Below are positions 1-64,000 of a stretch of DNA of 64,000 nucleotides, piece after piece. Position numbers and translations under genes: made by a program. This stretch comes from Nannocystis bainbridge (GTDB lineage Bacteria; Myxococcota_A; Polyangia; Nannocystales; Nannocystaceae): positions 3,520,001 through 3,584,000 of the forward strand of contig NZ_JAQNDL010000001.1 of NCBI RefSeq assembly GCF_028368995.1, in the 5' to 3' direction. The first letter of the stretch is position 1; every line of letters starts with the position of its first letter. The notes beneath the pieces are model-generated. The model made no database searches and was not told the origin of the DNA. It was given only the letters and a program-made list of their open reading frames with translations.

Positions 1-2660
1 TCGATGCCCGCCAGCGGGTCCGGGTCGCCGGGGTAGCGACGGATCATCGGCGCGACGATCGAATCCTCCGGGTCGGGCTCCGCCTCGTCGACGTTCACGT
101 CGAAGCTGCCGCTGGTGTCGGGCCCCTCGAGGATGGTCGCCGGCGCCAGCGACACGCGAGCCAGGCGGGCCCGCTCGCTGTCGAGGAGGCGCTCCAGCTC
201 GGCGATCTTGGCCTGCGCCTCGACCAGCAGGTTGCGCGTGACGTCGAGCTCGTCGGCGAGATCTTCGTACTGCTCCTTCTGCTTCTCGAGCTGGGCGAGA
301 CCGGCAGCCAACCGCGCGGCCGAGCGGTCGGTCGCGTCGTTCATCTCCCAGATCTTCTGCTCCGCGGTGTCGAGCTGGAACAGCATGTATTCCATCTCTT
401 CCGAGCGGATGCCGGCCTCGAGGCGAGAGCGACGCAGGCGGGCGCGCTCGTGCTCGACGATCCGCTGATGCTCGGCCTCGCTGCGGGCCAGCGCCTCGGC
501 GTGCTCGGCGGCCTGATCGGCCAGCTCGCCGCGCAGATCGAGGATCTCGGCCCGCGCCGCGTCCGACAGCGGCCCCGAGCCTTGACCGATCCGGCTCGCG
601 CCGAGCGACACGATCTGCTGCAGCTGATCGATCGCTTGGTGCTTGGCCTCGAGCTCGCGGCGCAGGCGGAACAGCTCGACCTCGGCGCCCTGCTTGGCCC
701 CCGCGAGCCCCTCCATGTCCTGTCGCTGCCGGCGCAGGCGGCCGCGCAGGTGCTCCTGCTCGGCCACGCCTTCCTCGAGCCGGCGCTGCAGCTCGGCCGC
801 CTCGTCCTCGCGCTCGATCGTCTTGCGCTGCTGGTCGCGCAGGCGCTCCTGCAGGCTGGGCACCGTCTCTTCGAGGCGCTGGATGTGCACCTGCAACACC
901 GCCAGCTCGCCGCGCAGCTGGGCCGCGAGGGTCGCGTGGTCCTCGACCGAGCGCCGCAGCTCGCGGACCGTGCGGGTCGAGTCGGCCAGCTCGCGGTCGC
1001 GGCGGCGGACGATGTCGGCGGCGGCGCGCTCGCGGGCCCGCAGCTGATCGCGCTGCGCGGTGACCTTCTCGAGCTCTTGCTGACGCGCCGCGTTGTCGAC
1101 CGGCGCCGCCGCCCCGCCGTGCGCCCCGGACTCCGCGCGCGAGCGCAGCCGCTGCTCCTGCGTGTTGTAGAGCCCTTGCAGCTCGGCGTGATCGAGCTCG
1201 AGCTTGCGCAGCTCGTGACCGAGGCGCTCGAGCTCCTGCACCCGGTCCTGCTCGATCGCCCGGCTGCGCTCGACCTGCTCGCGCAGGCGATCGACATCCG
1301 TCACCAGGCGCACGTTCTCGAGGTGCTCGCGCCGGATCTCCTCTTCTTGTTGCAGCACTCGCGTCTCGAGCTCTTGCAGCTCCCCGGTGCGGCGCGCCAG
1401 CTCCTCGCGCAGGCGGTTGCGATCGATCGCCGCGTCGGCGGTGGCGCGGCCGCTCTCGGGCGCGGCCAGCGGGGCGACCTCGTCGACCAGCTCGTGGGTA
1501 GCGACCGCGTTGTCGGCGTCGGGCCGGCGCAGCAGCGCGGCCAGCGAGTGCATGCGGCTGTCCTCTTGGACATGTTGCAGCGACTCGAGGCGGTTCCGCG
1601 CGGCGTGCAGCTCGGCGTCGGTGCGGGCCTTCTCCTCGCGCACGCGATCGAGATCGCTGGCCAGCTTGACCGCGTGCGCCAGCAAGCCCTCGCGCTCGGA
1701 CGAGAAGTTGTTGACGATCTCCCGCAGGCGATCGAGCTCGACGAGCGTCTCCGGGTCGGCGAGGCCCGGCGTGGGTTCGGGGGCCGCGACGACCGGCTCG
1801 GGCTCCGGCTCGTCCTGCGACTCGGGCTCGGGCTCCGGCTCGGGCAGCGGCGCGGGGGCCGAGATCTCGTGCAGCCGCGGCTGCGGGGTGCCGAGCAGGG
1901 CCGAGGCCGACTCGGCGGCGAACAGCGCCACGAGGTCGAAATCAGTGCTCTCGGTCGGCTCGGGCGGCGAGTACTGCCGCGGCCCGGGCGGAGGCTCCGG
2001 CGGCAGCGGCATCGCCGAGATGACCGTCACCTCCCCCATGTCGATCACCGGCGTGAGCGGATCGACCGGGCCGGTCGGCACGATGATGCACTCGCGCAGC
2101 TGGGCGTCGAGCTCCGCCTGCGACGCGATGAGGAGGTAGCGCTGGATCGGCAGCGGCTCGTCGAGCAGGCCCTCGCGCAGCACCGGCACCAGCGCGTCGC
2201 CGGGCGCGGTCGGCAGCAGCGGCGCGATGCTCACGCCTTGCCACTCGAGCTGGGCGAAGGCGCCGACGTGAGCGAAGACGCCGCGGAGATCGTCCTCGAC
2301 CTCCCAGAGGTGATCCGGGTCGGGCTCGACGGCGAGAGCCAAAATGCCACCGTCCCGTAACACTCGCTTCGACTCGAGGATCAGCGCGTGCCGGGCGGAG
2401 GGATCGTGCGTCACGCCGCCCTCGATGCACGTCACGGCGTCGAGGCTGCGATCACGCAGCGGCAGTCGTGACAGCTCCAGCGGGCCCGACCACACTTCGA
2501 GACCGGGCTCGGCAGGACAGTCGCCGCCGAGCACGAGCACGCGGGCCACACCGGCCGCCGCGAGCCGTCGCGGTCCTTCCGGCCCCCCGGGGAGCACGAC
2601 GGCCACGCGCTTTTGGAGCAGCCAACGCTCCAAAGCTACATATGCGGGCAGGTGGTACAC
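1..2660 (-). CDS. Long coiled-coil protein with N-terminal methyltransferase-like (probably degenerate) domain; runs off the left edge of the window
   Basis: Not in the ORF track. Manual translation from GTG at 2660 gives MYHLPAYVALERWLLQKRVAVVLPGG...RLPLRDRSLDAVTCIE...SKRVLRDGGILAL. The same frame reads ...PMIRRYPGDPDPLAGI at the left edge. The middle is E/R/A/L/Q-rich with a PE-repeat linker near 1790-1850. ORF 450..2360(+) is its antisense shadow. The full length was not translated codon by codon. Confidence 0.75.
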   Translation of the reverse strand, partial: MYHLPAYVALERWLLQKRVAVVLPGGPEGPRRLAAAGVARVLVLGGDCPAEPGLEVWSGPLELSRLPLRDRSLDAVTCIEGGVTHDPSARHALILESKRVLRDGGILALAVEPDPDHLWEVEDDLRGVFAHVGAFAQLEWQGVSIAPLLPTAPGDALVPVLREGLLDEPLPIQRYLLIASQAELDAQLRECIIVPTGPVDPLTPVIDMGEVTVISAMPLPPEPPPGPRQYSPPEPTESTDFDLVALFAAESASALLGTPQPRLHEISAPAPLPEPEPEPESQDEPEPEPVVAAPEPTPGLADPETLVELDRLREIVNNFSSEREGLLAHAVKLASDLDRVREEKARTDAELHAARNRLESLQHVQEDSRMHSLAALLRRPDADNAVATHELVDEVAPLAAPESGRATADAAIDRNRLREELARRTGELQELETRVLQQEEEIRREHLENVRLVTDVDRLREQVERSRAIEQDRVQELERLGHELRKLELDHAELQGLYNTQEQRLRSRAESGAHGGAAAPVDNAARQQELEKVTAQRDQLRARERAAADIVRRRDRELADSTRTVRELRRSVEDHATLAAQLRGELAVLQVHIQRLEETVPSLQERLRDQQRKTIEREDEAAELQRRLEEGVAEQEHLRGRLRRQRQDMEGLAGAKQGAEVELFRLRRELEAKHQAIDQLQQIVSLGASRIGQGSGPLSDAARAEILDLRGELADQAAEHAEALARSEAEHQRIVEHERARLRRSRLEAGIRSEEMEYMLFQLDTAEQKIWEMNDATDRSAARLAAGLAQLEKQKEQYEDLADELDVTRNLLVEAQAKIAELERLLDSERARLARVSLAPATILEGPDTSGSFDVNVDEAEPDPEDSIVAPMIRRYPGDPDPLAGI

Positions 2661-2953
2661 GAGTAGGGGACTTTGGCCCCGGCATCATACTGCAAGGGCC
2701 GTCGCTTTCCCCCCAGAGACAGCGGTGGCGCAAACGCGCGCGGCGGTCCGCACGCGGGCCGGAGAGGCCGGGTCCGCGGCCGAACTCGCGGGCCAGCCCC
2801 GGCCCCGACGGCAGACCGGCGCGGGCGGGGGGGCCGGGCCGACGCGGCCCGAGACGGACCCGGGGGCGCGTCGCGGTCGATCGTCCGGCTCGCGATGGAA
2901 CGACGAGGGCGGTTGATCCGCGGATTTACCTGCCCTACGATGCGGAATCGTCG

Positions 2954-4552
<1,599 letters not shown>

Positions 4553-4560
4553 GGCCGCGC

Positions 4561-4934: not shown

Positions 4935-4964
4935 CCGAGAGGGCGGCCTGGGCCGCCCTCTCGG
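4935..4964 (-). terminator. GC-rich hairpin downstream of gltI; probable intrinsic terminator
   Basis: Perfect inverted repeat CCGAGAGGGCGGCC-TG-GGCCGCCCTCTCGG about 30 bp past the gltI stop. The U-tract is short. Confidence 0.6.
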
Positions 4965-4995
4965 ACATGTCCTTACGGACAGCTCACTGTCGATT

Positions 4996-18318: not shown

Positions 18319-18646
18319 CAGAGACCTTTCCGGATCGCGTGCGGATGATAACGGGCGGGGCATCTGGTGACAAGGTTGCACGTCGGCGCGATCGTTCGCG
18401 GCGTTTCTCGGGCTTCGAGAAGGTCGCCGAGGTCGCGAGCGAAAACGCGCCACACGCGCCGGGCTCGCCGAAGATGCCGCTGGGCCCGGCAATCGGCCAG
18501 GTCGTGAGTTGACGCGAGCCCGCGGCCAGGGTCGGGCGATCTCACCGACAGATCTCCGAACGCCCAGCAGTCCTTAAACGCCGAAGGCCCGGCGTGGCCG
18601 GGCATCCTGGCTTTCGAGACAGGCTGTCCTTCAGGACAGCTTTCGA

Positions 18647-30852: not shown

Positions 30853-32206
30853 GGCGGAGCTCCGAAGGGCGCGTGGAGCGGCAAGTCTTGAGTTCAGCCA
30901 GTGCGTCGGCGACAAGACGTGCTGCCGCTTCCACCGGCTGGGGGCCGGAAGAGTCATTCATCGGGGTCGTTTCTGCAAGTCCCGCGGCGAGTTTGGACGC
31001 CTGCAGAATCACCGGTGAAAACGCCGCCTCGAGCCCCCGGAGGCCCGTGGATGAGGGCGCAGAGGCGGCTCCCGGGGCGTTCGTGACGGGCCGTGCGAGA
31101 TCTCCCGTACCGGCGCAGGCCAGCACCAGTACGAGCGGCGCTGAGAGATCTCCCGTTCCCGAGGCCGCGAGCAGATCGAGCAACGGCGCGGCTCCGCGGG
31201 CGAGCGGCAGCCCGTCCGCGGGACCGAGCGCGACCAACCGCGGGGCGGCGCCGTGGCGACGGCGGAGTTCGCGGGCGAGATCTTTGAGGCTGCGAAACTG
31301 GGCCGCGCGGGGGACGTCGCCGAGGTCGGAGGCCCGACCCGGCGCGACGACCCGCAGCTCCGCCCCGCCGGCGCTCGCGGCAGCGGCTAGGGCGGCGAGC
31401 AGGGCTGACCTTTCGGACATGTCCTTTTCGCCCTGCCCGAACTGCGCGACGAGGTAGACCGGCGCACCCGCGGGCAGCGACCGCTGCGGCCGCAGGTCGG
31501 GCCGCAGGGCCCAGGTGCGCCGCCAGGCCTGCTCGCGGCGCCAGCGAGCGACTTCGGCGTGGGCGCCGGCGAGCAGCACGTCGGGTACACCGAGGCCGCG
31601 GAAGTCGGGCGGGCGGGTGAAGTGCGGGTGCTCGAGCCAGGCACCATGATCTTCAGGACATGTCTCGGACGACATGTCCTGAAGCGAGAAGCTGTCGCGC
31701 GCGGCCGACTCGGGGTTGCCGAGCACGCCCTCGCGCAGACGGGCGACGGCCTCGATGATCGCTAGCGCGGCGACCTCGCCGCCATTGAGGACGAAGTCGC
31801 CGATCGACAGGCACTCGTCGACGAAGTGCTCGCGCACGCGGTCGTCGATGCCCTCGTAGCGGCCACACAGGAGGCCGATCCGCGGGACCGTGGCGAGCCG
31901 CTCGGCGACCCGCTGGTCGAAGCGCGGGCCGGCGGGGGTGAGGAGGATCCGGTGCATCGGCCCGCGCTCGCGCGTGACGTGCTCGAGCGCCGCGACGACC
32001 GGCTCGATCTTCATCACCATGCCCGGGCTGCCGCCGTACGGGGCGTCGTCGACGGTGCGGTAGCGGTCGGTGGCGAACTCGCGGTAGTCGGTGCAATGCA
32101 CGCTGACGAGCTCGCGTGCGACCGCCTTGCCGACCAGGCCGCCGCGCAGGAAACCGGCCACGGCCTCGGGAAACAGCGTGAAGACCTCGAAGGTCTGGCC
32201 GCTCAC
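30839..32206 (-). CDS. trmD: tRNA (m1G37) methyltransferase TrmD with a C-terminal extension of about 210 aa
   Basis: [54 protein letters not shown]. The stop overlaps the rplS start by 14 bp. Confidence 0.93.
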
Positions 32207-32796
32207 GGCGCCTCTCCGCCCTCCTCGAGGGCGTCGGGCAGGAGACCGAGCGGCAGGTCGACGCGCAGGCGCTCACCGTCGAGGTCGGCGATGAACTGCG
32301 GCAGCGCGGGCAAGAGCCAGGTGTCGCGGCGACCGTCGGGGCGCGTCCACTCGACCTCGAGCAGATCTTGCACCCCATTGCTGGTGACACCGGCGACGAC
32401 CCCGAGCGCCTGGGTGCGGCCGTCCGCGTGCACGCGCTCGACCGGGAGGCCGATCGTGTCGGAGATGTAGAACTCGTCCTCGGCCAGCGCAGGCAGATCG
32501 GCGCGAGCGACCCACACCTCGAGCCCGCGCAGGCGCTCGGCATGGTCGCGGTCGGCGACCCCGTCCAGCTGGACGCGCGCCGACGGCTTGCCGGGGATCG
32601 GCTCGACCGAGACGATCACGAAGGACATGTCCGATCGGGCATGTCCTTCGGGGCTACCGGATGGCCGGAGCTCGACCCGCAAGCCGCGCCTCAGGGCGCG
32701 CGAGTCGGGGTCGAAGAGGTGGAAACGAAGCTGACCGCGAACGCCGTGCGGCGCGGAGACCTCGGCGACGGCGATCGCGGCGGAGCGGCCCGACAC
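32203..32796 (-). CDS. rimM: Ribosome maturation factor RimM
   Basis: PHGVRGQL, DRDHAERLRG, LPALAEDEFYISDTIGL, GVQDLLEV, plus synteny. Confidence 0.92.
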   Translation of the reverse strand: MSGRSAAIAVAEVSAPHGVRGQLRFHLFDPDSRALRRGLRVELRPSGSPEGHARSDMSFVIVSVEPIPGKPSARVQLDGVADRDHAERLRGLEVWVARADLPALAEDEFYISDTIGLPVERVHADGRTQALGVVAGVTSNGVQDLLEVEWTRPDGRRDTWLLPALPQFIADLDGERLRVDLPLGLLPDALEEGGEAP

Positions 32797-37060: not shown

Positions 37061-37993
37061 TCACTTGAGCGCGACCACGTAGCCGAGCCAGGCTTCCTGG
37101 TTCTCGATCTCCGTGTGCTCGACGAACTCGCCGGTGCCGGTCAGGTACTCGTCGTCGTCCTCGTCGGCCTCGACGCGCTCGAAGTAGAACTTCACGCTCG
37201 AGAAGCCGGCCTCGCGCAGCAGCTCACCGAGCTCCGGCAGGGTCCACAGGCGCCAGTCGTAGGTGAAGGCGCGGTACAGCTGCGAGCCGTCGCGGAACTT
37301 CCACGTGATGTGGCACAGCGTGTGGTGGTTGATCGGGTTGAACTTCTCCTGCTCCCACACGTACGTCAGCCCGCCGCGCAGCTCGCGTTCGTCGCTGAGC
37401 TCGACCACCGCCTCGGTGCCGCCGTAGACCTCGAGCGCGAAGGCGCCGTCGGCGACCAGGTTCTCGTGGGCGGCGGCGAAGTAGCCGCGCAGCTCCTCGC
37501 GGGTCTTGAAGATGCAGTAGCTGAAGTTCATCGCCACGATCAGGTCGACCGCGGGCAGGCTGGTGTCGCGCACGTCGGCCTGGGCCAGCGTCACGCGCTC
37601 GACCGCGTCCGGGGGCGCGCCGGCGAGGGTGTTGGTGCGGCCCCACTCGAGCGTCGGGCCGTCGAGGTCGACGCCGAGCGCCGTGCGGCGCGGGTCGGAC
37701 TTGCACCACTCGGTGGAGAACAGCGCGGTGCCGCAGAAGTCCTCACGCACGCTGAGCGGGGGGCGGCCGCGGTGCTTCTGGAACTCGGCGTCGAAGAACT
37801 CGATGTCGACGCCGGGCGACTGGACCGAGCGCTGGTAGAGCGCGAACTTGTCGGCGCTCTCGGCCTGCGTCGGCCCGCGCTTGCGCGCCGGCGGCTTCGA
37901 CGACTTCTTCTTGGCCGCCGCGCTGGCCTGCTTCTTGGCGGGCTGCTGCTTCGGCGACTTCTTGGCGGGGGCCTTCGCGGTCTTTTTGGACAT
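37061..37993 (-). CDS. Class I SAM-dependent methyltransferase with Lys-rich N-terminus
   Basis: LYQRSVQSP, REDFCGTA, GVDLD, DLIVAMNFSY, AFTYDWRLW. Confidence 0.85.
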   Translation of the reverse strand: MSKKTAKAPAKKSPKQQPAKKQASAAAKKKSSKPPARKRGPTQAESADKFALYQRSVQSPGVDIEFFDAEFQKHRGRPPLSVREDFCGTALFSTEWCKSDPRRTALGVDLDGPTLEWGRTNTLAGAPPDAVERVTLAQADVRDTSLPAVDLIVAMNFSYCIFKTREELRGYFAAAHENLVADGAFALEVYGGTEAVVELSDERELRGGLTYVWEQEKFNPINHHTLCHITWKFRDGSQLYRAFTYDWRLWTLPELGELLREAGFSSVKFYFERVEADEDDDEYLTGTGEFVEHTEIENQEAWLGYVVALK

Positions 37994-38013
37994 GTTCGTT
38001 CAGACAGGTTGCG

Positions 38014-42824: not shown

Positions 42825-43910
42825 GTGACCGGGGTGGACCAGGTCGACGTCGTCGTCGTCGGCGCCGGCGTGGTCGGCTGCGCGGTCGCTGCGACGCTCG
42901 CCCGCCAAGGCCGCGAGGTGCTCGTGCTCGAGCGCGAAGCCCGGGAAGGCACCGGGGTGTCGAGCCGCAACAGCGGCGTCATCCACTCGGGGCTCTACTA
43001 CCCGCCGGCTTCGCTCAAGGCCGAGACATGTCTGCGAGGACAGGAACTTTTGTACAGCTGGTGCGCGCGTCATCGGGTCGACCACGCGCGCCTCGGCAAG
43101 CTGGTGGTCGCCCGCAGCAGCGAAGAAGAGGCCGCGTTGCAGGCGCTGGCGGACAATACGAGCGCGGCCGGGGCGCGGGATTGTGTGCTCGTCGGCGCGG
43201 GCGCGGTGCGGGCGCGTGAACCCGGGTTGCCGGGCGTGCGGGCGGCGCTGTGGTGCCCGAACACGGGGATCGTCGATGTCCACGGGCTGTGCGGCTCGCT
43301 GCGCGCCGAGGCCGAGGCGCACGGGGCGGTGTTCGGCGTGCACGCGCGGGTCGACGGGGCCGAGATCGCCGGCGCCGCGGTGACGCTGCGGACCACGCGC
43401 GGGCCGGTGGTGGCGGGGCGGATCGTCAACGCCGCCGGGCTGCACGCCGACGAGCTGGCGGCGCTGCTCGGGGCCGCGTCGCCGCGGATTCACCCGTGCC
43501 GCGGGGATTACTTCCGCCTGCGCACGCCCGTGCGCTACCGCCACCTGATCTACCCGGTGCGAGCGCGCGGCGCCGCCGGTCTTGGCGTGCACCTCACGCT
43601 CGACCTCGCGGGCGCGTACCGACTCGGACCTGACGTCACGTACGTCGAGGCGCGCGACGACTTCGGCCCCGCGGCCCACAAGCTCGCGGCGTTTCATCGC
43701 GCCGCGTGCGCTCTGCTCGGCCCGATCGGCGAGGACCAGCTGAGCTACGAGGGTTGTGGGATCCGCCCCAAGCTGCGCGGCCCCGACGAACCGGCCGAGC
43801 GCGACTTCGCGGTGTTCACGAGCCCCGGCTGCGTGCACCTGGTCGGCATCGAGTCGCCCGGGCTGACCGCCGCGCTCGCGCTGGCCGAGAAGGTCGCCGC
43901 GCTGGTGTGA
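42825..43910 (+). CDS. FAD-dependent oxidoreductase, L-2-hydroxyglutarate oxidase (LhgO)-like
   Basis: VVVVGAGVVG, SSRNSGVIHSGLYY, GLGVHLT, GIRPKL, GIESPGLTAA. Confidence 0.88.
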   Translation: MTGVDQVDVVVVGAGVVGCAVAATLARQGREVLVLEREAREGTGVSSRNSGVIHSGLYYPPASLKAETCLRGQELLYSWCARHRVDHARLGKLVVARSSEEEAALQALADNTSAAGARDCVLVGAGAVRAREPGLPGVRAALWCPNTGIVDVHGLCGSLRAEAEAHGAVFGVHARVDGAEIAGAAVTLRTTRGPVVAGRIVNAAGLHADELAALLGAASPRIHPCRGDYFRLRTPVRYRHLIYPVRARGAAGLGVHLTLDLAGAYRLGPDVTYVEARDDFGPAAHKLAAFHRAACALLGPIGEDQLSYEGCGIRPKLRGPDEPAERDFAVFTSPGCVHLVGIESPGLTAALALAEKVAALV

Positions 43911-44761: not shown

Positions 44762-46405
44762 ATGGAGACGGCCCCGCCGAGCGCCGACCCGCAGGTCGTC
44801 GACCTGGCCAGGATGAGCCTGCCCCGGCTCATGTTCGCGCTGCTGCACCGCCGCTTCACCGGCACGATCAGCCTCACGCCGGCGGCCCCGGACGCGCCCG
44901 GCCGCAGCGCCGACGTCGGCGCGCGTCGGGTGTGGTTTCAGGGCGGGATGCCGATCTTCACCGACTTTTCCAGCCCGCACGACTCGATCGGCCAGGTGCT
45001 CGTCGATCTCGGGCTCATCGAGCCGGCCGAGCGGGACCGCGCGATGGCCGAACTGGCCCGCCTGGCCCAGCCAGGGGCCCCGCGCGAGCGTTTCGGCCAT
45101 TACCTCGTGCGCCGCCGCCTCGTCACCGGCGGCCAGCTCCGCAAGGCGCTGCGCGTCCAGTGCGCCCGCAAGGTGGTCCACCTGTTCGCCCTGCGCGCCG
45201 GCTCGGCCCAGATCGTCGCCGGCGACGCCGCCGCCGCCGAGACCGACGCCTCGCAGCCGACCCAGGTCAACACCCTCGAGCTCATCCACGCCGGCGTGGT
45301 CGCCCACTTCGACCCACGCCGGATCGCCGCCGAGATGGGCCTCCTGCTCGACGGCCCGCTGCGCCTGCGCTCGTCGTTCGACCGCTACCGGACCCAGTTC
45401 CACTTCGCCAAGGGCGACGAGGCGATCGTCGACGCCCTGCGCCCCGGCAACCTCTACGTCACCGACGTCGCCCGCCTGTCCGGTCAGCCCGAGGCCCGCG
45501 TCGCCGCGGTGGTCTACACGCTGTGGGCCTGTCAGATGTTGAAGTCGGCCAACGCACCGCCCGACCAGGCGACCGGGCCGAACGCCATCCTGCCCGAAGC
45601 GACAGGTTCTTCGATACCTGTCCTCAAGAACAGCAAGCCGGCGGGGCGCGACAGCCTGCGCGCGGCCGAGTTCGCCGGCGAGCTCGAGCGGCTCGAAGCG
45701 GCGATCGCCGGCGGGGCCAACGCGTTCGACCTGCTCGGCCTGGCGGCCACCGCCGACCGGGCCCAGGTCCGCGCCGCCTGGCATGTGCTGAGCCGGCGCT
45801 TTCACCCCGACAGCCTGCCGCACCAGGGCCTCGGCCACCTGCGCGAGCGCTCGCAGGCGGTGTTCGCCGCGCTCAGCGAGGCCTACCAGCGGCTTTCCGA
45901 CGACGCCCAGCGCGAGCAGATCGCGGCGCTGCTGCGCGGCGGGCAGCCGGCCCCGCGCGCGACCGCGGGCCCGAGCGCGCAGGCGGTGCTCGAGAGCGAG
46001 GTGGTGGTCCGCGAGGGCGACAAGCTGCTGCGCGCCGGCAACTTCGACCGCGCGCTCGAGCGCTACCGCAAGGCCGCGGCCCTCAACCCCGACGAGCTCG
46101 AGGTCCGCGCCGCGATCGCGTGGTGCGAGTACCAGCTGGCCGCCGACAAGGCGCCGGTCCGCGACGCCACCCGCGCGGCCCTGTTCGAGGTCCTGGCCCG
46201 CCAGCCGCGCTGCGTCCGCGCCCACTACGACCTGGGCCTGCTGTCCCTCGGGTCCGGTGACGACGAACAGGCGCTGCTGCATTTTAATCAGGTGCTCGAG
46301 CTGGAGCCCGACAGCATCGACGCGAAGCGGCAGATCCACGCGATCCAGCTGCGCCGCTCGACGCCCGAGGGCCCGCGCCGCAAGCTGTTCGGCCCGCGCC
46401 GGTGA
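44762..46405 (+). CDS. DUF4388-like + J-domain + TPR protein
   Basis: N-terminal LHRRFTGTI...VWFQGG...IGQVLVDLGLI, J-domain LSRRFHPD and C-terminal TPRs. Common myxobacterial architecture. Confidence 0.8.
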   Translation: METAPPSADPQVVDLARMSLPRLMFALLHRRFTGTISLTPAAPDAPGRSADVGARRVWFQGGMPIFTDFSSPHDSIGQVLVDLGLIEPAERDRAMAELARLAQPGAPRERFGHYLVRRRLVTGGQLRKALRVQCARKVVHLFALRAGSAQIVAGDAAAAETDASQPTQVNTLELIHAGVVAHFDPRRIAAEMGLLLDGPLRLRSSFDRYRTQFHFAKGDEAIVDALRPGNLYVTDVARLSGQPEARVAAVVYTLWACQMLKSANAPPDQATGPNAILPEATGSSIPVLKNSKPAGRDSLRAAEFAGELERLEAAIAGGANAFDLLGLAATADRAQVRAAWHVLSRRFHPDSLPHQGLGHLRERSQAVFAALSEAYQRLSDDAQREQIAALLRGGQPAPRATAGPSAQAVLESEVVVREGDKLLRAGNFDRALERYRKAAALNPDELEVRAAIAWCEYQLAADKAPVRDATRAALFEVLARQPRCVRAHYDLGLLSLGSGDDEQALLHFNQVLELEPDSIDAKRQIHAIQLRRSTPEGPRRKLFGPRR

Positions 46406-46410
46406 GGCGG

Positions 46411-49471: not shown

Positions 49472-50467
49472 CTAGCGGTAGGTGCAGCCGCGCAGGCACG
49501 AGCCGTTGTTGCGCTCGGCGGCGGCGGCCAGGCTGTCGGCGGGGAAGTCGTCGCGCAGCACCTGGGCGCGCTCCCAGTCGCGGCGGACGTAGTAGCGGGC
49601 GCACAGGCCGAGCAGGTCGACGTCGTCGAAGCGCGGCTGGGCCCGGCGGGCGTTGGCGCGGAGCTCGTAGGGGCCGACGCGGGTCCTGGCGGCGCTGGCG
49701 ACCAGAGTGGTTTGATTGCCGGCCTCGCTGAGGAAGCCGTAGCAGCTCGGGTAGACCGCGGCGATCGTCTCGCGGTCGTGCGGGTACATGCGCGTGCCGT
49801 TGTGGAGGTTGGCGACCGCGACCCCGCCGGCGGCGAGGCGCCCCAGGACCTCGCCGTGGAACTCGGCGGTCTTGAGGTGGGGCGGCACCTGGACCCCGCG
49901 GAACGCGTCGAGCACGATCATGTCCCAGCGCTCGGCCGCCGGCGCGCGCTGCAGGAACAGCCGCGCGTCGGCGACGTGGACGCGGTAGCGGGGATCTGCC
50001 GTGGGCACGCCGAAGAACGCCTGGGCCAGGCGCACCACCTCGGGGTCGATGTCGACGGCGTCGAGCTCGAGCCCGGGCATGCGCTCGTAGAAGTAACCGG
50101 GCAGCGCGCCGCCGCCGAGGCCGAGCACGAGGATCCGCCGCGGCTCGGGATGGACGACGAAGCCGGCCAGCATGGTGCGGAAGACGTCGAGGTCGAGGCT
50201 GCGTCGGTGCGCCGCGTCGATGCGGGTCTCGATGAACTGCGTGCCGTCGTCGCCGATGAACAGCATCGTCCGCACCGAGCCGCGCTCGACCACGCGCACG
50301 TGGTTGTAGCGCGAGCGGCCCTCGCCGAGCACGCGCTCCGCGTCGCCTGTCCCCGAGGACATGTGATTGCCCGGCCCGGCGGCTGCGGCCGCGCGAGACC
50401 CGAGGACGCTGCCGAGCCCGGTGACCGCCGCCCCGCCGAGCTGCTGGAGAAAGCCCCGCCGCTGCAC
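49472..50467 (-). CDS. Spermidine-synthase-like SAM methyltransferase with predicted Tat signal (paralog)
   Basis: GTG start at 50467, QRRGFLQQLGG signal, SRYNHVRV, LVLGLGGG, AVDIDPEV, DMIVLDAF. Confidence 0.85.
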   Translation of the reverse strand: MQRRGFLQQLGGAAVTGLGSVLGSRAAAAAGPGNHMSSGTGDAERVLGEGRSRYNHVRVVERGSVRTMLFIGDDGTQFIETRIDAAHRRSLDLDVFRTMLAGFVVHPEPRRILVLGLGGGALPGYFYERMPGLELDAVDIDPEVVRLAQAFFGVPTADPRYRVHVADARLFLQRAPAAERWDMIVLDAFRGVQVPPHLKTAEFHGEVLGRLAAGGVAVANLHNGTRMYPHDRETIAAVYPSCYGFLSEAGNQTTLVASAARTRVGPYELRANARRAQPRFDDVDLLGLCARYYVRRDWERAQVLRDDFPADSLAAAAERNNGSCLRGCTYR

Positions 50468-52271: not shown

Positions 52272-52277
52272 ACGACA

Positions 52278-53015: not shown

Positions 53016-53033
53016 CGCGCCGAGGACCGTCGT

Positions 53034-53447
53034 ATGGCCGAGCCCGAGACCGACAACGCCGAAGCGCTGATGAGCGCCTACCTCGACGAGGAGCTCGACG
53101 CCGAGGGCAAGAGCAAGCTCGAGGCGATGCTCGCGACCTCGCCCGCGGCGCAGAAGGAGCTGTCCGGCCTGCAGAACATGCTGCGGCTGGTCAAGGGCCT
53201 GCCCGAGGAGCAGGCCCCGCCCGACTTCTACGAGAAGGTCGCCAAGAAGATCCGCCGCCGCCGCTGGCTGCGCGGCGAGTACCTGATCGCGCTGGCCCTG
53301 CCGTTCCAGATCATCAACGTCCTCGTGATCCTCGCCGTCGCGGTCGTCTACATGATGCTCCACCTGGACGTCGACGTCGCCGGCCGCAAGCTCGAGCGCG
53401 ACCCGACGGTCCAGCAGGCCAAGCCGCCCGCGACGCCTGCGCCTTAG
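53034..53447 (+). CDS. Membrane-anchored anti-sigma factor
   Basis: LMSAYLDEELD anti-sigma N-terminus without HxxxCxxC, a TM segment, and position directly after the ECF sigma. Confidence 0.8.
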   Translation: MAEPETDNAEALMSAYLDEELDAEGKSKLEAMLATSPAAQKELSGLQNMLRLVKGLPEEQAPPDFYEKVAKKIRRRRWLRGEYLIALALPFQIINVLVILAVAVVYMMLHLDVDVAGRKLERDPTVQQAKPPATPAP

Positions 53448-53507
53448 GGCATGTTCTCCGGGGCATGTCCTCGCGGGCATGTCCCCGGGCGCATGTCCTC
53501 GCGGACA
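53438..53507. repeat. Array of five 14-bp TGTCC-N4-GGACA-like palindromic units
   Basis: TGCGCCTTAGGGCA TGTTCTCCGGGGCA TGTCCTCGCGGGCA TGTCCCCGGGCGCA TGTCCTCGCGGACA. Confidence 0.85.
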
Positions 53508-53520
53508 GCCGCCTTGGCGC

Positions 53521-55785
53521 TCACTTGTGGTGGAACACGGCCACACCGTCCCAGTCGGGCGGCGCCGCCTCGCCGAGGCCTTCCAGCCGCCCCAGGTGCA
53601 GGCGCACCACCGGGTCGTCCGGGTTCTCGGCGGCGAACGCCTGCCAGTGCGCGCGCGCGGCCGCGAAGTCGCCGGCGCGGAAGGCCGTCAGGGCCGCGCT
53701 CCAGCGGTCCAGCGCCGCGTACTCGGCGACGGCCCCGTCCGGCCCCGCCAGCAGCTCGAAGATCGCCACCGGTCGGCCCTTGCCCTTCACGCGCACCAGG
53801 TCGACCTCGCGGAAGCGGTAGCTCGGCGGCGCGGCGGCGCGGGTGCCGGCGCCGACCAGGCAGAACACCCCGTACGTCTTCGTCAGGCCCTCGAGGCGCG
53901 ACGCCAGGTTGACCGCGTCGCCGCACACCGTGTAGTCGAAGCGGTCGGCCGAGCCCATGTTGCCGACCACCATGTCGCCGGTGTTGATGCCGACGCCGAT
54001 CTGCAGCGCCTCGACCCCGAACTGGCGCAGCGACGGCTGCAGCCGGGCCAGCGCGGCGTGCATCGCCAGCGCGGTGGCGAGGCCGCGCGCGGCGTGGTCG
54101 GCCCGGGCCACCGGCGCGCCGTACACCGCCATCACCGCGTCGCCGATGTACTTGTCGAGGTAGCCGGCGCGCGCCATCACCTCCTGCGTCATCGGCGTGA
54201 GGAACGTGTTGAGCAGCGCCACCAGGTCCTCGGGCGACAGCCGCTCGGCCACGCCGGTGAAGTCGCGGATGTCGGAGAACAGCACCGTCAGCTCGCGCCG
54301 CGCCCCGCCGAGCCCGAGGGCCTTGGGGTCGGCCAGCAATTCGTCGAGCACCTCGGCCCCGAGGTAGCTGGAGAACGTCCGCCGCAGCCGCGCCCGCTGC
54401 AGCGCCTCGCCGGCGTACGCGGCCGCCAGCGCCGCCGAGCCCGCGACCACCGCGGCCAGCAGCGGCCACACCAGCGCCAGCCACAGGTGCATGCGCGTGA
54501 ACGCCAGCGCCGCCGCGGCGACGTCGAGGCCGATCACCGCCAGCACCCCGGCGATGCGCGCGAGCGGCCCGGCCCGCAGCGCCGCGGCGAACAGCAAGCT
54601 GACCAAAAGGCCAGATATCAGCGTGACCAGGGCGTCGGTCAGGGCCGAGCTGCGGACCAGCGGGTCGCCGGCGAGGATCGTGTCGACGGCGGTGGCCTGC
54701 AGCTCGACGCCGGGCAGATCGCCGGCGAACGGGGTGCGGACGACGTCGTGGCCGAAGTAGGTCACGCCGAGCAGGACGATCTTGCCGCGCAGCAGCGCGT
54801 CGGCGCGGCCCTCGACGACATCGGCCGCCGACACCGTGGGGAAGGTCCCGGGCCCGCCGCGGAAGTTGAGCACCACCGCCTCGTCGGCGCCGAGCGGGAC
54901 CCGGCGTGCGCCGATCTGCAGGCTCGCCTCGCCGCCGAGGAACGCCAGCTCGGCCCGCCCGAGGCCCTCGCGCAGGGCGACCAGCTGGACCGACAGCGGC
55001 GCGTAGGCGGCGTCGCCGACCCGCCAGGCCGCGGGGATCGTGCGCACCGCGCGGCCTGGGTCCTCCTCGACGGTGATCCCGCCGAGCGCCCGCGCCCGCG
55101 CGACCAGCTCGGGCAGCGACACCAGCCCCGCCTCGGCGATCCGGATCGGGGGCGAGCGCGCGTCCTGCTGGCCGTAGCGCCCGTGACGCAGCGTCGCCGG
55201 GTCCGGCAGAGGCCGCCCATCACCTGACTCTTGGGTCAGATGAATCGCCAGCGCCACGTTGCCCGCGGCCGCCACCGCGCTCGCCAGCTCGGCGTCGCCC
55301 GTCAGCTCGCGCGCGACCTCCCGCAGCAGCGCCTCGGCCTGGCCTTCGGGACCTGCTCCGACGGGCATGTCCTTTTCGACATGTCCCTTGATGCGGGCGC
55401 CGAGCTCCGGCGACAGCAGCTCCTCGGGGTCGACGTAGACCTGGTCGATGCCGATCGCCGCCGGCCGCGCCGCCGCCAGCGCGCGCACCAGCGCGGCCGT
55501 GCCGGCGCGGCGCTGGTAGAGCTCGGGCCGGCGCTCGAGCGTGGCGTCGTCGATGGCCACGATCACCACCTCGCCGGTGGTCGGGACCGGCCCGCGCCAG
55601 CGGAACCGCTGGTCGAGGCTGGCCCGCTCGAGCGCGTCGACCCACCGCACCCGCCAGCCCGCGCGCTCCAGACCGCACAGCAGGGCGATCGCCACGCTGA
55701 GCAGCCCGGCCAGCAGCGCCGGCGAGCGCAGCAAGGCCCGCCGGCGCGCGCCGGGCCGCGACGGGCTGGCCGGGGCGCCGCGCAT
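53521..55785 (-). CDS. CHASE2-domain class III adenylate cyclase
   Basis: LDQRFRWRG, VVIVAIDD, GKIVLLG, PGVELQATAVDTIL, three TMs, FSDIRDFT, LDKYIGDAVMA, YTVCGDAVNLASRLEGLTK. ATG 55785 overlaps the upstream stop (TGATG). Confidence 0.92.
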   Translation of the reverse strand: MRGAPASPSRPGARRRALLRSPALLAGLLSVAIALLCGLERAGWRVRWVDALERASLDQRFRWRGPVPTTGEVVIVAIDDATLERRPELYQRRAGTAALVRALAAARPAAIGIDQVYVDPEELLSPELGARIKGHVEKDMPVGAGPEGQAEALLREVARELTGDAELASAVAAAGNVALAIHLTQESGDGRPLPDPATLRHGRYGQQDARSPPIRIAEAGLVSLPELVARARALGGITVEEDPGRAVRTIPAAWRVGDAAYAPLSVQLVALREGLGRAELAFLGGEASLQIGARRVPLGADEAVVLNFRGGPGTFPTVSAADVVEGRADALLRGKIVLLGVTYFGHDVVRTPFAGDLPGVELQATAVDTILAGDPLVRSSALTDALVTLISGLLVSLLFAAALRAGPLARIAGVLAVIGLDVAAAALAFTRMHLWLALVWPLLAAVVAGSAALAAAYAGEALQRARLRRTFSSYLGAEVLDELLADPKALGLGGARRELTVLFSDIRDFTGVAERLSPEDLVALLNTFLTPMTQEVMARAGYLDKYIGDAVMAVYGAPVARADHAARGLATALAMHAALARLQPSLRQFGVEALQIGVGINTGDMVVGNMGSADRFDYTVCGDAVNLASRLEGLTKTYGVFCLVGAGTRAAAPPSYRFREVDLVRVKGKGRPVAIFELLAGPDGAVAEYAALDRWSAALTAFRAGDFAAARAHWQAFAAENPDDPVVRLHLGRLEGLGEAAPPDWDGVAVFHHK

Positions 55786-56930: not shown

Positions 56931-57198
56931 CGTGCCTCCTGCCGCTCAGACGCGCCTATACCACGAAATCCGGCCACCTCGCGGCGCCGCGGCCCCGCGG
57001 CTGGCCACGAGGACAGCCGCCCATCGGGCCGGCGCGCGGCCCCGCCCATTTTCGCCGTGCGGGCGCGCGTGACCGCGAATTCGCCGCTTGACATTTCGAG
57101 TTCTTCGCGCCTCCCCCCCTCTACGTGGTTCCCTCGGGCGGCTCGCAAAAGCTCCGCGGAATCTTAGCGGACCTGTGATAAAAACCGGCTGTTCCCTC

Positions 57199-58541: not shown

Positions 58542-59350
58542 AGCGCCGTGTGATCCCCTGCCTCGATATCAAGAACGGCCGGGTCGTCAAGGGCGTCCAT
58601 TTCGCCAACCTGCGCGACACGGGCGACCCTGTCGAGGCTGCGCGCGCCTACGACACCCAAGGCGCCGACGAGCTGTGCCTCCTCGACATCACCGCGACCA
58701 CCGAGGGGCGTGACACCTTCGTCGACGTGGTCCGGCGCGTGGCCGGGCAGATCTTCACGCCGCTGACCGTCGGCGGAGGCGTGCGCCGCGAGGCCGACGT
58801 CCGCCGCCTGCTGGCCGCCGGCGCCGACAAGGTCGCGGTCAACAGCGCCGCCGTCGCCAACCCACTGCTGATCCGCCAGCTCGCCGACCGCTACGGCAGC
58901 CAGTGCATCGTCGTCGCCGTCGACGTGCGCCAGCTGAAGCCGCTGCCGGGCGAGACCGACCCGCTGTACGAGGTCGTGATCCACGGCGGCACCCGCTCGA
59001 CGGGCCTCGACGCGGTGTCGTGGTGCGAGCAGGCGACGGCGCTCGGCGCCGGGGAGATCTTGCTGACCTCGATGGACAAGGACGGGACCCGCGACGGCTA
59101 CGACCTGGCGATCACCCGCGAGGTGTCCAGGCGTGTGCCGATCCCGGTGATCGCCTCCGGCGGCGTGGGCTCGCTCGAGCACCTGCGCCAGGGCCTCGAC
59201 CCCAAGGAGGGCGCCGCCGACGCCGCCCTCGCCGCGTCGATCTTCCACTTCGGCCTCTACACCATCGCCCAGGCCAAGCACTACCTGGCCGACCACGGCA
59301 TCCCCGTCCGCCCGCAAGAGGCGCCGCGCGGGGTGCTCATCACCGGCTGA
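58535..59350 (+). CDS. hisF: Imidazole glycerol phosphate synthase cyclase subunit
   Basis: [53 protein letters not shown]. Confidence 0.97.
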
Positions 59351-59431
59351 CCGAACGGACATGTCCTCCGGGGCATGTCCGTTCGCACCTGGCCATTTGA
59401 ACCTGGCGACTCGGACATGTCCCTCCAGACA
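59348..59431. repeat. Array of six 14-bp TGTCC-N4-GGACA-like units spanning the hisF stop to the hisIE start
   Basis: TGACCGAACGGACA TGTCCTCCGGGGCA TGTCCGTTCGCACC TGGCCATTTGAACC TGGCGACTCGGACA TGTCCCTCCAGACA. Confidence 0.8.
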
Positions 59432-60133: not shown

Positions 60134-60145
60134 CGCCGCGCGCGT

Positions 60146-60306
60146 CAGCCAGCGCTGCACCGATCGCCGCGCCCGCGCAGGCCGCTCGCGCCTCGTCGTC
60201 GCGTGCGCCGATCGCCGGGCCCGCGCGGGCCCAATTGCGCAGCCATCGCTGCACCGATCGCCGGGCCCGCGCAGGCCGCTCGCGCCTCGTCGTAGCGTGC
60301 GCCGAT
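60146..60306. repeat. Imperfect 67-bp direct repeat (60146-60212 and 60240-60306)
   Basis: CAGCCAnCGCTGCACCGATCGCCGnGCCCGCGCAGGCCGCTCGCGCCTCGTCGTnGCGTGCGCCGAT occurs twice with 3 mismatches and a 94-bp offset. Confidence 0.85.
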
Positions 60307-60572
60307 TTCCTCCGCCGTGGGCCGCGACCGTCGCGCCCGCTCGGGCGCTCGGGCCGCGGCGTGCGCGTGCGTGGGCGACTCTACCGCCAGCGACAGGCGA
60401 GCCGACCGCGACCGCGCCTGCGAGGCTGCTCGTGCCGATCCGTCGGCGAATCACCGCTCACCGTGGCCGCTGCGCGCGAGACCACGAGCGACGCGGCCCG
60501 CGACGAGCGCGACCCGGCCCCTCCGCGCTCTCCCGCGACGGCGCGGCGGAGAGCGGATATGCTGGGCGTGTC

Positions 60573-61169: not shown

Positions 61170-61172
61170 ATT

Positions 61173-61415
61173 ATGCCCGCGCCCAAGTCTCGCACGCTCT
61201 ACATCGGAGGCTTACCGCCCTCGGCCTCCCCCGAAGCGCTGCGCGAGGCCTGGGCCCGCTTCGGCGTCATCCACGACGTGCGCCTGATCCCCCGCCGCGA
61301 GCTCGTCATCGCCTACGTCACCTTCGCCGACGAGGCCGCCGCCCACGGCGCCCGCCGGGCCCTCGACGGCTCGACCTTCGCCGGCCACCGCCTGCGCGTC
61401 GAGTTCGCCATCTGA
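61173..61415 (+). CDS. RRM-domain RNA-binding protein
   Basis: RNP2 LYIGGL, RNP1-like IAYVTF and C-terminal LDGSTFAGHRLRVEFA. Confidence 0.85.
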   Translation: MPAPKSRTLYIGGLPPSASPEALREAWARFGVIHDVRLIPRRELVIAYVTFADEAAAHGARRALDGSTFAGHRLRVEFAI

Positions 61416-61496
61416 CCACACGGACATGCCCTTGGGAGCATGTCCATGCGGTCATGCTCCCAAGAACATGCCCTCGGGGACATGTCCCAAGCGACA
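61413..61496. repeat. Array of six 14-bp TGTCC-N4-GGACA-like units
   Basis: TGACCACACGGACA TGCCCTTGGGAGCA TGTCCATGCGGTCA TGCTCCCAAGAACA TGCCCTCGGGGACA TGTCCCAAGCGACA. Confidence 0.85.
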
Positions 61497-61543
61497 AGGC
61501 TCGCACCGTGCTGGAGCTATGGGTGAGCCAGGCGCTCGCCGCC

Positions 61544-62647: not shown

Positions 62648-62686
62648 GCGGCCGAGCGTAGCAGCCCGTTCGCTGCGCGCCACGCT

Positions 62687-64000
62687 TCAGCCGCCGCGGG
62701 CGATGCCCAGCAGCTTCATCTTTTTATGAAGGTGTGTGCGCTCGACATCGAGGGTCTCGGCCGTCTTTGAAACATTCCAGTTCTGCTCGCTCAAGCGCTG
62801 GAGGATGAACGCCCGCTCGACCGAGTCGCGGAACGCCTTGAGCGACATGCCCGGAGGGACAGCTCCCTCGCCGAACTGGACCACCGCGTCGCCACCGACC
62901 GGCGCCCCGGCTTCTTCTTCTAAATCGCCGCGGATCTCCAGCGGCACGTCGCCGATGTCGATGTCGCCGTCGGACAGGATCGCGGTCCGCTCCATCACGT
63001 TGCGCAGCTCGCGGACGTTGCCCGGCCACGGGTAGGTCTCGAGCACCGCCTGGGCGGCCGGCGACAGCCGCTTGGGCGCGATGCCGTTCTCGTGGCAGGC
63101 CAGGTCGAGGTAGTAGCGGCACAGCAGCGCGACGTCGCCCGGGCGCTCGCGCAGCGACGGCACGGCGATCGGCACCACCGCCAGGCGAAAATAAAGGTCC
63201 TCGCGAAACTCGCCGGTGCCCACGAGCTCGCGCAGGTTGCGGTGGGTCGCCGCGAGCACGCGGACGTCGACCTTGATGGGCCGCTCGCCGCCGACCCGCA
63301 TCAACTCGCCGCTCTGCAGCACGCGCAACACCTTGGCCTGCGCGTTCAGGTCCATGTCGCCGATCTCGTCGAGGAAGAGCGTGCCGCCGTGGGCCAGCTC
63401 GAACAGCCCGCGCTTCTGCGCGGTCGCGCCGGTGAACGAGCCGCGCTCGTGGCCGAACAGCTCGCTCTCGATCAGCTCGCGCGGGATCGCGGCGCAGTTG
63501 ACCTTCACGAACGCCGCGGCCCGCCGCTCGCTGGCGTCGTGGATGGCCCGCGCCACCAGCTCCTTGCCGGTCCCGCTCTCGCCCTCGATCAGCACCCGCG
63601 CCCGCGTGCCGCCGACCTTGATCACCTGCCGCAGCAGCTCCTGCATCGGCCGCGACTCGCCGATGATCTCGCGCCGCGCCAGCGCCCGCAGGCTGCGCAG
63701 CTCGGCCTCGGTCTGGTAGTGACGCAGGGCGTTGCGCACGCTGACGATCACGCGGTCGCGCGCGAGCGGCTTCTCGAAGAAATCAAAGGCGCCGAGCCGG
63801 GTCGCCCGCACGGCGTCGGTCACGGTGGCGTGGCCGCTGATGAGGATGATGGGCAGCGGGGGCGTGCCGCCGCCGATCTCGCACAACTTCTCGAGCAGCT
63901 GCAGGCCCGACATGCCGGGCAAGCAGACGTCGACCATGACGACCTGGATCGGTCGCTGGCCCTCGGGACCCTCGACGAGGGCGCGCTGGATCATCGCCAG
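62687..64000 (-). CDS. Sigma-54-dependent response regulator (NtrC family), 5' end outside the window
   Basis: Receiver ([17 protein letters not shown]), AAA+ [30 protein letters not shown] and Fis HTH. Confidence 0.95.

Follow-up and report, generated by a model that had tools for sequence, protein, structure and literature searches.

We analysed a 64,000-nucleotide stretch of the Nannocystis bainbridge genome (NCBI RefSeq assembly GCF_028368995.1, contig NZ_JAQNDL010000001.1, positions 3,520,001 to 3,584,000; hereafter the window), in which a 14-bp palindrome, TGTCC-N4-GGACA, recurs both inside and between genes. The host genome, labelled G000 below, comprises 11.05 Mb on five contigs with 71.5% G+C. 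The five perfect copies, or units, that a first-pass annotation of the window had placed at positions 1559, 4968, 18625, 50348 and 53494 were all recovered there; 0.05 were expected, and none of 100 shuffled sequences reached five. Relaxing the pattern to TGYCC-N4-GGRCA gave 10 matches in the window (0.22 expected), and allowing up to one mismatch gave 22 units (1.64 expected). The same annotation had listed further starts as near-perfect. Units were indeed present at all of them, although they are more degenerate than that description, with one mismatch (31406, 32628, 43029, 57002, 59348, 61413 and 62848), two (31647, 37993, 45591 and 55340) or three (53438). Two additional one-mismatch singles, absent from that list and possibly due to chance, lie in genes at 13311 and 48906. 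The units and rows of the window are as follows (window coordinates, no strand assigned):

1559..1572: perfect single unit in a long minus-strand open reading frame (ORF; window 1-2660)
4954..4981: two units, one perfect and one with two mismatches, 15 nt 3' of the stop of a gene for a 4046-aa TPR protein
18625..18638: a lone perfect unit, 9 nt past the stop of an FHA-domain gene (18647-20737, minus strand)
31406..31433: one-mismatch unit plus a GGACATGTCC junction, in frame in the ORF continuing from trmD
31647..31688: 42 bp made up of three degenerate units, inserted in frame into the linker between the TrmD domains
32628..32655: two units in rimM, where the close clade has 18 extra nt (6 codons)
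37979..38006: two degenerate units spanning and contributing the start ATG of a minus-strand gene (37061-37993)
43029..43042: one-mismatch unit in an FAD-oxidoreductase (DAO) gene, probably protein-encoded or ancient
45591..45632: two units 28 bp apart, one with two mismatches and the other with one, within a linker encoded by a DUF4388/DnaJ/TPR gene
50348..50361: perfect unit in the 5' portion of an ORF (49472-50485, minus strand), also found in each of the five close relatives
53438..53507: five-unit row lying between two convergent genes (53034-53447, plus strand; 53521-55785, minus strand)
55340..55395: four in-phase units inside a CHASE2 adenylate-cyclase gene
57002..57015: a rare promoter-side copy, with one mismatch, upstream of hisH in a divergent spacer
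59348..59431: six units filling the hisF-hisIE spacer, from the hisF TGA in TGACC to the hisIE ATG in GGACATG
61413..61496: six units 3' of an RRM-domain gene, which is convergent with the gene at 61544-62629
62848..62861: one-mismatch unit in the linker before the helix-turn-helix (HTH) of an NtrC-type activator gene

Genome-wide abundance and spacer specificity

Across the host genome, the perfect palindrome occurs 1987 times with a four-base spacer. With spacers of three and five bases, the two that the first-pass annotation had singled out for comparison, it occurs 16 and 5 times, and the remaining spacers between N0 and N12 yield 0-11 copies each. The motif read backwards has three copies in the genome. 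The excess extends to imperfect copies: the genome has 4258 one-mismatch units, where the N3, N5 and N6 controls have about 100-270, and 7530 two-mismatch units, where the controls have 2058-4617. Since perfect and mismatched counts both exceed those of the controls, we estimate the genome total at roughly ten thousand units. Overall, the motif is more than 100 times as abundant as control patterns. Extending good units in 14-bp steps yielded 5446 loci in the 11.05 Mb, about one locus per 2 kb, and the units of these loci sum to about 9835.

Architecture of the units and their rows

Isolated single units share the extended consensus R-C-M-TGTCC-N4-GGACA-K-G-Y. Most GGACATG heptamers of the genome (5934 of 7160) fall within units, and the 1226 that lie outside are ordinary in number, ranking 117th among 420 heptamers of the same composition, so that the half-site alone is not enriched. 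Moreover, 1145 of the 1987 perfect units stand without an adjacent half-site. The enriched entity is thus the inverted pair, not the half-site.

About 60% of the 5446 loci are single units, and the longest rows hold nine. The head-to-tail joining at a 14-bp period described in the first-pass annotation was borne out well beyond the window. Distances between successive good units peak at 14 bp (485 cases), 28 (274) and 42 (165), and then at 56 and 70; distances between CATG tetramers genome-wide peak at 14 (3736), 28 (2073), 42 (1586) and 56 (751), compared with about 60-480 at other distances. Within the window, Tandem Repeats Finder (TRF) reported periods of 14/28 at 53447-53504 and of 28 at 61439-61491.

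The four-base centre had been described as free, and largely it is, except that three complementary pairs (TTCG/CGAA, CTTC/GAAG and CTCG/CGAG) account for 2166 of the approximately 9835 units. Of 4389 pairs of adjacent units, 128 (2.9%) share the same centre, compared with 1.6% at random. Because neighbouring centres are mostly unrelated, most rows are not products of slippage, as the annotation had argued, but a minority are true duplications: at G000 C3:1085845, for example, eight near-identical units form a plain tandem duplication. Complementary centres two units apart are a real feature, found in 96 of 2207 pairs (4.3%, against 1.5% at random); as they concern a minority, we rejected higher-order palindromes as a general rule.

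Placement relative to genes

Genes were called genome-wide with a simple codon-usage caller (8134 genes, 83-86% coding), whose stops are exact and whose starts are approximate. Units with no more than one mismatch number 6245, of which 3461 fall between genes, 2625 inside called genes and 159 on a gene edge. The first-pass annotation had regarded the sites as placed regardless of context; on the genome scale, however, they heap up after stops and in convergent spacers and are scarce in divergent promoter regions. Their density is highest in convergent spacers (5.2 units per kb), lower in co-directional (1.84) and divergent ones (0.64) and lowest in genes (about 0.25), and 50-53% of convergent spacers of 30-299 nt carry a unit, compared with 116 of 2929 divergent 5' regions (4%). 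For 7130 genes, 2154 units start 0-59 nt past the stop, whereas 132 start in the last 60 nt of the ORF. A unit lies within 100 nt after the stop of 1991 out of 8131 genes.

Positions behind stops are phased, with peaks at 0, 14, 28, 42 and 56 nt, and at offset 0 the stop TGA itself opens a TGACC half-site (63 cases). We rejected a start-codon context element, since merely 83 of the 6245 units sit at a called start. The five contigs have similar densities, with a mean of 56.5 per 100 kb. Density stays the same across both GC-skew switches (C1 at about 4.4 Mb and C3 at about 1.5 Mb) and is lower in stretches of lower G+C (r = 0.48). The window matches this genome-wide pattern, with rows between convergent genes (53438 and 61413), a row in the hisF-hisIE spacer and singles 9-15 nt past stops.

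Copies within genes

The 5677 confident coding sequences (CDS) contain 720 perfect units, where 10.1 are expected from their proteins and codon usage. This 71-fold excess compares with observed-to-expected ratios of 0.2-3.1 for seven control motifs in CDS. The in-gene copies have a cause at the DNA level.

Several copies lengthen conserved proteins. Relative to solved TrmD proteins, the TrmD encoded in the window has 13 extra residues (39 nt) in its inter-domain linker, encoded by the three degenerate units at 31647; the corresponding stretch is 76 nt long in the six close genomes, and a distant congener, G009, has 64 nt and one unit there. In rimM, five of the six close genomes have a stretch of 61 nt and the sixth, G010, one of 70 nt; in G009 and G002 it is 43 nt and holds no units. 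A 16-nt gap in the genome of a relative, G005, lies opposite a G000 unit. At 62848, by contrast with its motif-bearing state in G000, the NtrC-type activator gene of G002, G006 and G009 has the same length and the same peptide (AVPPGMS) without the motif, the difference consisting of synonymous codons. Comparisons aimed at weighing insertion against substitution covered little: the G009 alignment spanned about 99 kb and a single conserved G000 unit, and the gap survey against G005 yielded few clean cases.

Other genes of the window also carry units. The perfect unit at 1559 is read as CAT GTC CAA GAG GAC, codons that are rare in this GC-rich genome. The stretch at 31406 has an identical length of 45 nt in five close relatives. 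The trmD frame (window 30842-32206) that runs through this in-frame unit extends about 200 codons beyond the usual end of TrmD, to a total of 455 aa, and is either a fusion or a pair of genes run together because no stop separates them. The two units at 37979 that supply a start codon are kept in five relatives. The 43029 stretch has the same length and a one-mismatch unit in G002 and G008 as well; since it is common to distant relatives and fits a conserved protein motif, this unit may be ancestral or a chance match. At 45591 the stretch spans 76-85 nt in close genomes and 64-66 nt in G006, G008 and G009, and at 55340 it is 76 nt in all six close genomes, with no length change. Elsewhere in the host genome, at G000 C3:1816596-1816721, a 42-bp block of three units is repeated three times in frame inside a gene, and the units there therefore encode a 14-residue protein repeat.

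Conservation and turnover between species

We compared units between G000 and G005, whose coding identity is 90%. G005 retains 45 of the 47 in-gene loci that could be anchored, and at 43 of these the length is unchanged. For in-gene units (n = 54), half-site identity is 91-100% and centre identity 76-89%; for intergenic units (n = 41), the values are 66-85% and 49-59%, respectively. The half-sites are conserved while the centre drifts.

Intergenic copies also come and go, presence or absence differing between close species at four of 13 anchored loci. The rows show this turnover in the window. Every close relative has a row at 53438, and at both 53438 and 61413 the number of units and their centres differ in every species; at 61413, G005 has a stretch of 65 nt and G010 one of 387 nt. 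In G000, the stop TGA of the RRM-domain gene falls inside the first half-site of the 61413 row, whose units 2 and 4 are inverted copies. In the hisF-hisIE spacer, half-sites are kept in five relatives although nearly every centre is different; the frame is kept, with different centres, in four of the relatives compared, and the row of G003 is exactly one unit (14 bp) shorter. The same spacer in G002, G006, G008 and G009 measures 56-72 nt and has no units. The promoter-side copy at 57002 behaves otherwise: the site is perfect in five close relatives and, unlike the units in rows, it keeps its centre (GCGA). This unit may be a true operator.

Phylogenetic distribution

A double unit was found in 8 of 10 genomes of the same genus and in none of 30 genomes of other genera. 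In a public genome collection, 78 stretches match the double unit, 64 of them in records titled Nannocystis, 9 in one Nannocystaceae metagenome-assembled genome (MAG), 2 in a Myxococcales MAG and 3 as single hits in unrelated organisms. Perfect units number 1987 in G000, 1793 in G005 and 333-563 in two fragmented congeners. They fall to 87-169 in four genomes of one sister genus (g2) and 67-295 in four of another (g4), then to 6-20 in genus g32 and 0-10 in the other 13 genera, within the range of the controls (0-10). Expressed per Mb, this corresponds to about 170 perfect copies in Nannocystis and about 10-30 in the two sister genera, a level 10-20 times lower, with background counts in the 14 other genera of the family. 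Counts of the 18-mer show the same genus-level gradient. Since a 400-kb stretch of the distant congener G009 contains 54 perfect units, the whole genus appears to be rich in the motif.

One viral record (59 kb) carries the double unit; four of its six units lie near the ends, and two one-mismatch units lie between 10 and 58 kb. We also considered whether the sister-genus sites form a small regulon and rejected this, because the 20 sites fetched were mixed. Some coincide with protein-encoded motifs by chance, EHHVRGDM in a single conserved gene and TGMSxWTC in a ketosynthase; others are single intergenic sites that share no neighbour, several of them next to DUF4215 genes. Four g2 sites (L120, L123, L124 and L125) are intergenic and lie about 1 kb or less from genes for DUF4215 cysteine-rich proteins; the L124 site supplies the ATG of a lipoprotein-like signal peptide. 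No description of the motif was found in the full-text library searched or by term look-ups in two Nannocystis genome papers, and the junction GGACATGTCC returned p53 papers only.

Recognition of the palindrome

Dimeric proteins that read the major groove characteristically leave conserved half-sites on either side of an unread spacer; RNA-binding and HUH proteins recognise loops, bulges and flanks, not perfect stems. We compared the two modes of recognition. Single-stranded rows fold strongly (-43 to -50 kcal/mol, z -3.3 to -4.3; -50.2 kcal/mol, z -4.3 for the row at 53438), and the single unit at 18625 would form a 7-bp hairpin if single-stranded. Yet among 4435 degenerate units beside good ones, compensatory changes were no more frequent than with shuffled right halves (787, against 774 +/- 23), and Watson-Crick pairs were slightly fewer (13136, against 13333 +/- 42). 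Between co-directional genes the centres showed no strand bias (CGAA 85, TTCG 84); with TTCG and CGAA equally frequent on the sense strand, selection of a UUCG-type tetraloop was rejected. Nor did G.U-type variants show a clear sense-strand bias (314 sense against 269 antisense overall; 257 against 327 in genes). An intrinsic terminator scan of window positions 48001-64000 found 3 sites, against 3.2 expected, none of them at an intergenic row, and the rows have no U-tracts. No Rfam family matched the window at gathering score. A search of sequencing runs returned soil-metagenome contigs and no RNA run from this organism.

Duplex recognition is indirectly favoured over a hairpin because the arms are conserved in sequence, the centre drifts, and we found neither compensatory pairing nor a clear strand bias. 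We propose that TGTCC-N4-GGACA is the recognition site of a putative two-fold symmetric, homodimeric, sequence-specific protein peculiar to Nannocystis and its two nearest genera, a reading to which we give about an even chance. The dimer recognition suggested in the first-pass annotation is indirectly supported, both by the exact spacing, the drifting centres between kept half-sites and the ordinary frequency of lone half-sites, and by the results on pairing and on G.U variants. Abundance, exact spacing, phasing, placement and half-site conservation were observed directly, as was the independence of the two half-sites; reading by a protein, its dimeric state and its role are inferred.

Under such a model, each subunit would read one half-site in duplex DNA and leave the four-base centre unread, and successive dimers at a 14-bp pitch would lie about 120 degrees apart around the helix. 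As three units (42 bp) equal four helical turns, a row could carry a continuous protein spiral, and this geometry suggests that the protein may polymerise cooperatively on 14-bp rows. Copies might arise by insertions of 16-18 bp, by gain or loss of whole 14-bp units and, within genes, by base substitution, including synonymous substitution. They would persist through selection or a site-dependent drive, and would accumulate where they are least harmful, namely after stops, in convergent spacers, at operon junctions and in protein linkers. The motif behaves like one of the genome-wide tags of the repetitive extragenic palindrome (REP)/bacterial interspersed mosaic element (BIME), highly iterated palindrome 1 (HIP1) or uptake-sequence class, and not as a centromere or nucleoid-occlusion site.

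Several observations weigh against a dimeric DNA-binding protein as the whole explanation. The position of units after stops and upstream of terminator-like hairpins (4968 and 18625), from which it follows that many copies are transcribed, fits rival explanations, as does the strong hairpin folding of the rows. A binding protein by itself does not account for the de novo insertions of 16-18 bp, and the 6-bp overlap of sites at a 14-bp pitch would need a small footprint. The covariation test is weak, in that decaying units may be under no constraint and models in which both pairing and sequence matter are poorly separated by it, and the G.U asymmetry of 314 to 269 leans slightly to the RNA side. 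The conservation samples are small (54 and 41 units), and the gene calls come from a crude codon-usage caller.

A self-regulated binder did not emerge either. Of 63 small genes (up to 260 aa, adjoining a unit in a divergent spacer), 60 were scanned and no DNA-binding family was enriched; among them are single Rrf2, MarR and ArsR regulators and two of the TetR family. An HNH gene beside two units and the lysine-rich methyltransferase-like gene of the window (37061-37993) were rejected as binder candidates, since both occur in genera that lack the motif (13 of 17 and 17 of 17 genera sampled, respectively) and thus do not track it. The product of the latter gene (window 37064-37993) is a 310-aa protein with an N-terminal tail rich in Lys, Ala and Pro and a weak, sub-cut-off similarity to S-adenosylmethionine (SAM) methyltransferases. 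At G000 C1:596565-597504, an Rrf2-family regulator and a bacterial globin are encoded divergently, and their 82-bp spacer holds one unit 9 nt from the regulator start.

Taken further, the motif could constitute a genome-wide tagging system in Nannocystis and its two nearest genera. An abundant dimeric protein polymerising on phased palindromes would form a two-way barrier to transcriptional read-through or supercoil diffusion, with tags behind a quarter of genes, at half of the convergent junctions of 30-299 nt and written into housekeeping genes. We put this fuller scheme forward tentatively, as possible though doubtful.

Alternative explanations

Much of the placement and turnover would also suit a selfish, non-autonomous hairpin element of the REP/REPIN (paired REP) or miniature-transposon kind, copied into new sites by an enzyme whose gene lies elsewhere in the genome and which reads the folded single strand, and distributed according to where insertions are tolerated. 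The descent in density from convergent spacers (5.2 units per kb) through co-directional (1.84) and divergent ones (0.64) to genes (about 0.25) is REP-like; units follow closely behind 1991 of 8131 stops and form rows of up to nine; true insertions are seen (18 nt in rimM, 39 nt in trmD, the 16-nt gap in G005); and loci are gained and lost, at four of 13 intergenic sites and by exactly one 14-bp unit in G003. We nevertheless think such an element unlikely. A search for the Y1/RAYT (REP-associated tyrosine transposase) family PF01797 had no match in G000 (90.5% complete), although the control search was positive in 6 of 14 reference genomes, and no PF05635 gene was found in the genome. Centres are so diverse and unrelated (128 identical neighbours in 4389) that the copies are not recent replicas of a few masters. 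The half-sites are conserved at orthologous sites, as a decaying insert would not be, the copy at 62848 differs from motif-less relatives by synonymous substitutions alone, and 14-18 bp is very small for a transposase substrate. Somewhat less likely again is an element acting at the RNA level in 3' untranslated regions, whose hairpins would block exonucleases, cause transcription from either direction to pause or end, or influence translation termination at the nearby stop codon. The crowding just past stops (2154 starts, against 132 just before them), the contrast between convergent spacers and divergent 5' regions, the units at 4968 and 18625 between a stop and a terminator-like hairpin, and the strong folding of rows all suit it; a palindrome gives the same stem on both strands and therefore suits convergent genes, and REP elements near stop codons have been reported to affect translation in E. 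coli. The conservation of stem sequence with a free loop is nonetheless the reverse of the usual targets of RNA-binding proteins. Compensatory changes are lacking, the sense-strand G.U excess is weak and inverted in genes, in-gene units, about 2300 in number, stand at 71 times expectation, and the rows have no U-tracts, with terminator and Rfam results as given above.

The remaining explanations keep recognition at the DNA level. In one, a special case of protein recognition, the motif would serve as a DNA uptake or 'self' signal that a competence or recombination protein reads and that biased uptake and gene conversion spread. This accords with the density of about one locus per 2 kb, the lineage restriction that falls off in sister genera like dialects, in-gene copies made without length change and conserved, the scarcity in lower-GC stretches and in the interior of the viral record, the presence of a ComEC gene, and the pile-up behind genes, which resembles the DNA uptake sequence (DUS) pairs in terminators described in PMC2397512. 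We still hold it to be very unlikely: known uptake signals are asymmetric single motifs, whereas here the half-site is not enriched and the pair requires its exact N4 spacing; neither phased rows nor in-frame insertions characterise DUS or uptake signal sequences (USS); and ComEC is nearly universal (10 of 14 control genomes). A HIP1-like motif tied to modification, in which an orphan methyltransferase, with or without a short-patch repair activity, would recognise the site and repair bias or selection would keep it abundant, has a slim probability. A bipartite 5-N4-5 site would be unusual for a methyltransferase, we have no candidate enzyme, and HIP1 is a contiguous octamer with no phased rows and no pile-up behind stops. 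On the other side, the excess of more than 100-fold over controls and the conservation of copies recall HIP1, which is conserved within and between ORFs according to PMC5861425 and recognised by two methylases according to PMC13756078. Least probable of all is the chromosome-organising system of the parS/ParB, matS/MatP, SlmA or Noc kind that the first-pass annotation had proposed. The palindromic form of the site, its occurrence inside genes as well, and rows suggestive of spreading or polymerisation are in keeping with that idea, but it is contradicted by about 10^4 copies in place of tens, by even density on five contigs with no change at two GC-skew switches, and by the strong bias to gene 3' ends. 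To our knowledge, moreover, the sequence matches no parS, matS, SlmA or Noc site.

Neighbouring features in the window

Several other features of the window deserve mention. The gene for the TPR protein occupies 4996-17136 on the minus strand, and the units at 4954..4981 sit between its stop and a GC-rich terminator-like hairpin; the unit at 18625 likewise precedes a terminator-like hairpin. A separate tandem repeat with a 20-bp period (window 4551-4810; about 12 copies, 60-bp higher order) directly follows an FHA-GAF-cyclase gene (2954-4552), ahead of the 4954 units. Two further tandem repeats were noted, one with a 46-48-bp period after the hisIE gene (60141-60306) and one with a 21/42-bp period and 95% matches (62343-62451) inside the gene at 61544-62629. 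The interval 46411-48443 contains two genes with low codon-usage scores (39 and 56), one of which has AAA_21/AAA_23 domains of the AbiEii/OLD type. This interval may be acquired DNA, and it holds no units.

Comparison with known systems

Lineage-specific, hyper-abundant motifs such as REP, HIP1 and DUS are known, and their purpose is mostly unsettled. The Nannocystis motif is unusually tractable among them, with its dimer-site architecture, strict 14-bp pitch, graded phylogenetic range and post-stop position. These features give a handle on the reader, through pull-down and phylogenetic profiling, and on roles in termination, topology and DNA exchange. There are practical consequences too: rows break short-read assemblies, and they supply stop and start codons and add peptides to conserved proteins, which affects the annotation of these large genomes rich in natural-product genes.

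Like the REP/BIME elements of enterobacteria and pseudomonads (including REPINs with RAYT), the units are short palindromes in hundreds to thousands of copies, lineage-specific and clustered in rows, which lie behind stops, at operon junctions and in convergent spacers and are rare in promoters. They differ in that the Nannocystis genome has no RAYT gene, the unit is merely 14-20 bp with an unread 4-bp centre, rows run head-to-tail at a strict 14 bp in place of alternating REPs with spacers, the degenerate units tested lack pairing covariation, and thousands of copies lie in genes. Rickettsia palindromic elements (RPEs) are about 100-150 bp long and are inserted in frame into genes. The palindromic, in-frame insertions in housekeeping genes (here trmD and rimM) are a shared trait, although the Nannocystis inserts are 18-42 bp, are made of 14-bp units and belong to a family whose copies are mostly intergenic. 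FNR-type operators (TTGAT-N4-ATCAA) are dimer sites found in promoters in tens of copies; they have the same 5-N4-5 geometry, whereas the Nannocystis motif has another sequence, about 10^4 copies and a presence in 116 of 2929 divergent 5' regions. The parS, matS, SlmA-binding (SBS) and Noc-binding (NBS) sites number from a few to about 100 and are confined to or excluded from regions, compared with 6245 units of at most one mismatch on all contigs here.

The DUS of Neisseria and the USS of Pasteurellaceae occur about once per 1-2 kb in lineage dialects, at permissive yet conserved places, are rare in newly acquired DNA and form inverted pairs behind genes, as set out in PMC2397512, and in all these respects the Nannocystis motif is similar. 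Those sequences are, however, asymmetric single motifs that work as one copy, in contrast to the exact N4 inverted pair and 14-bp rows described here. HIP1 (GCGATCGC) is a hyper-abundant cyanobacterial palindrome, 15-300-fold over-represented and conserved within and between ORFs, according to PMC5861425. The Nannocystis motif is likewise over-represented by two orders of magnitude (1987 copies against 3-16 for controls, and 71-fold in CDS) and conserved in ORFs. It departs from HIP1 in being bipartite, HIP1 being a contiguous octamer read by known methylases (PMC13756078), and in belonging to a different phylum with a different sequence; HIP1 has no phased tandem rows and no reported post-stop concentration.

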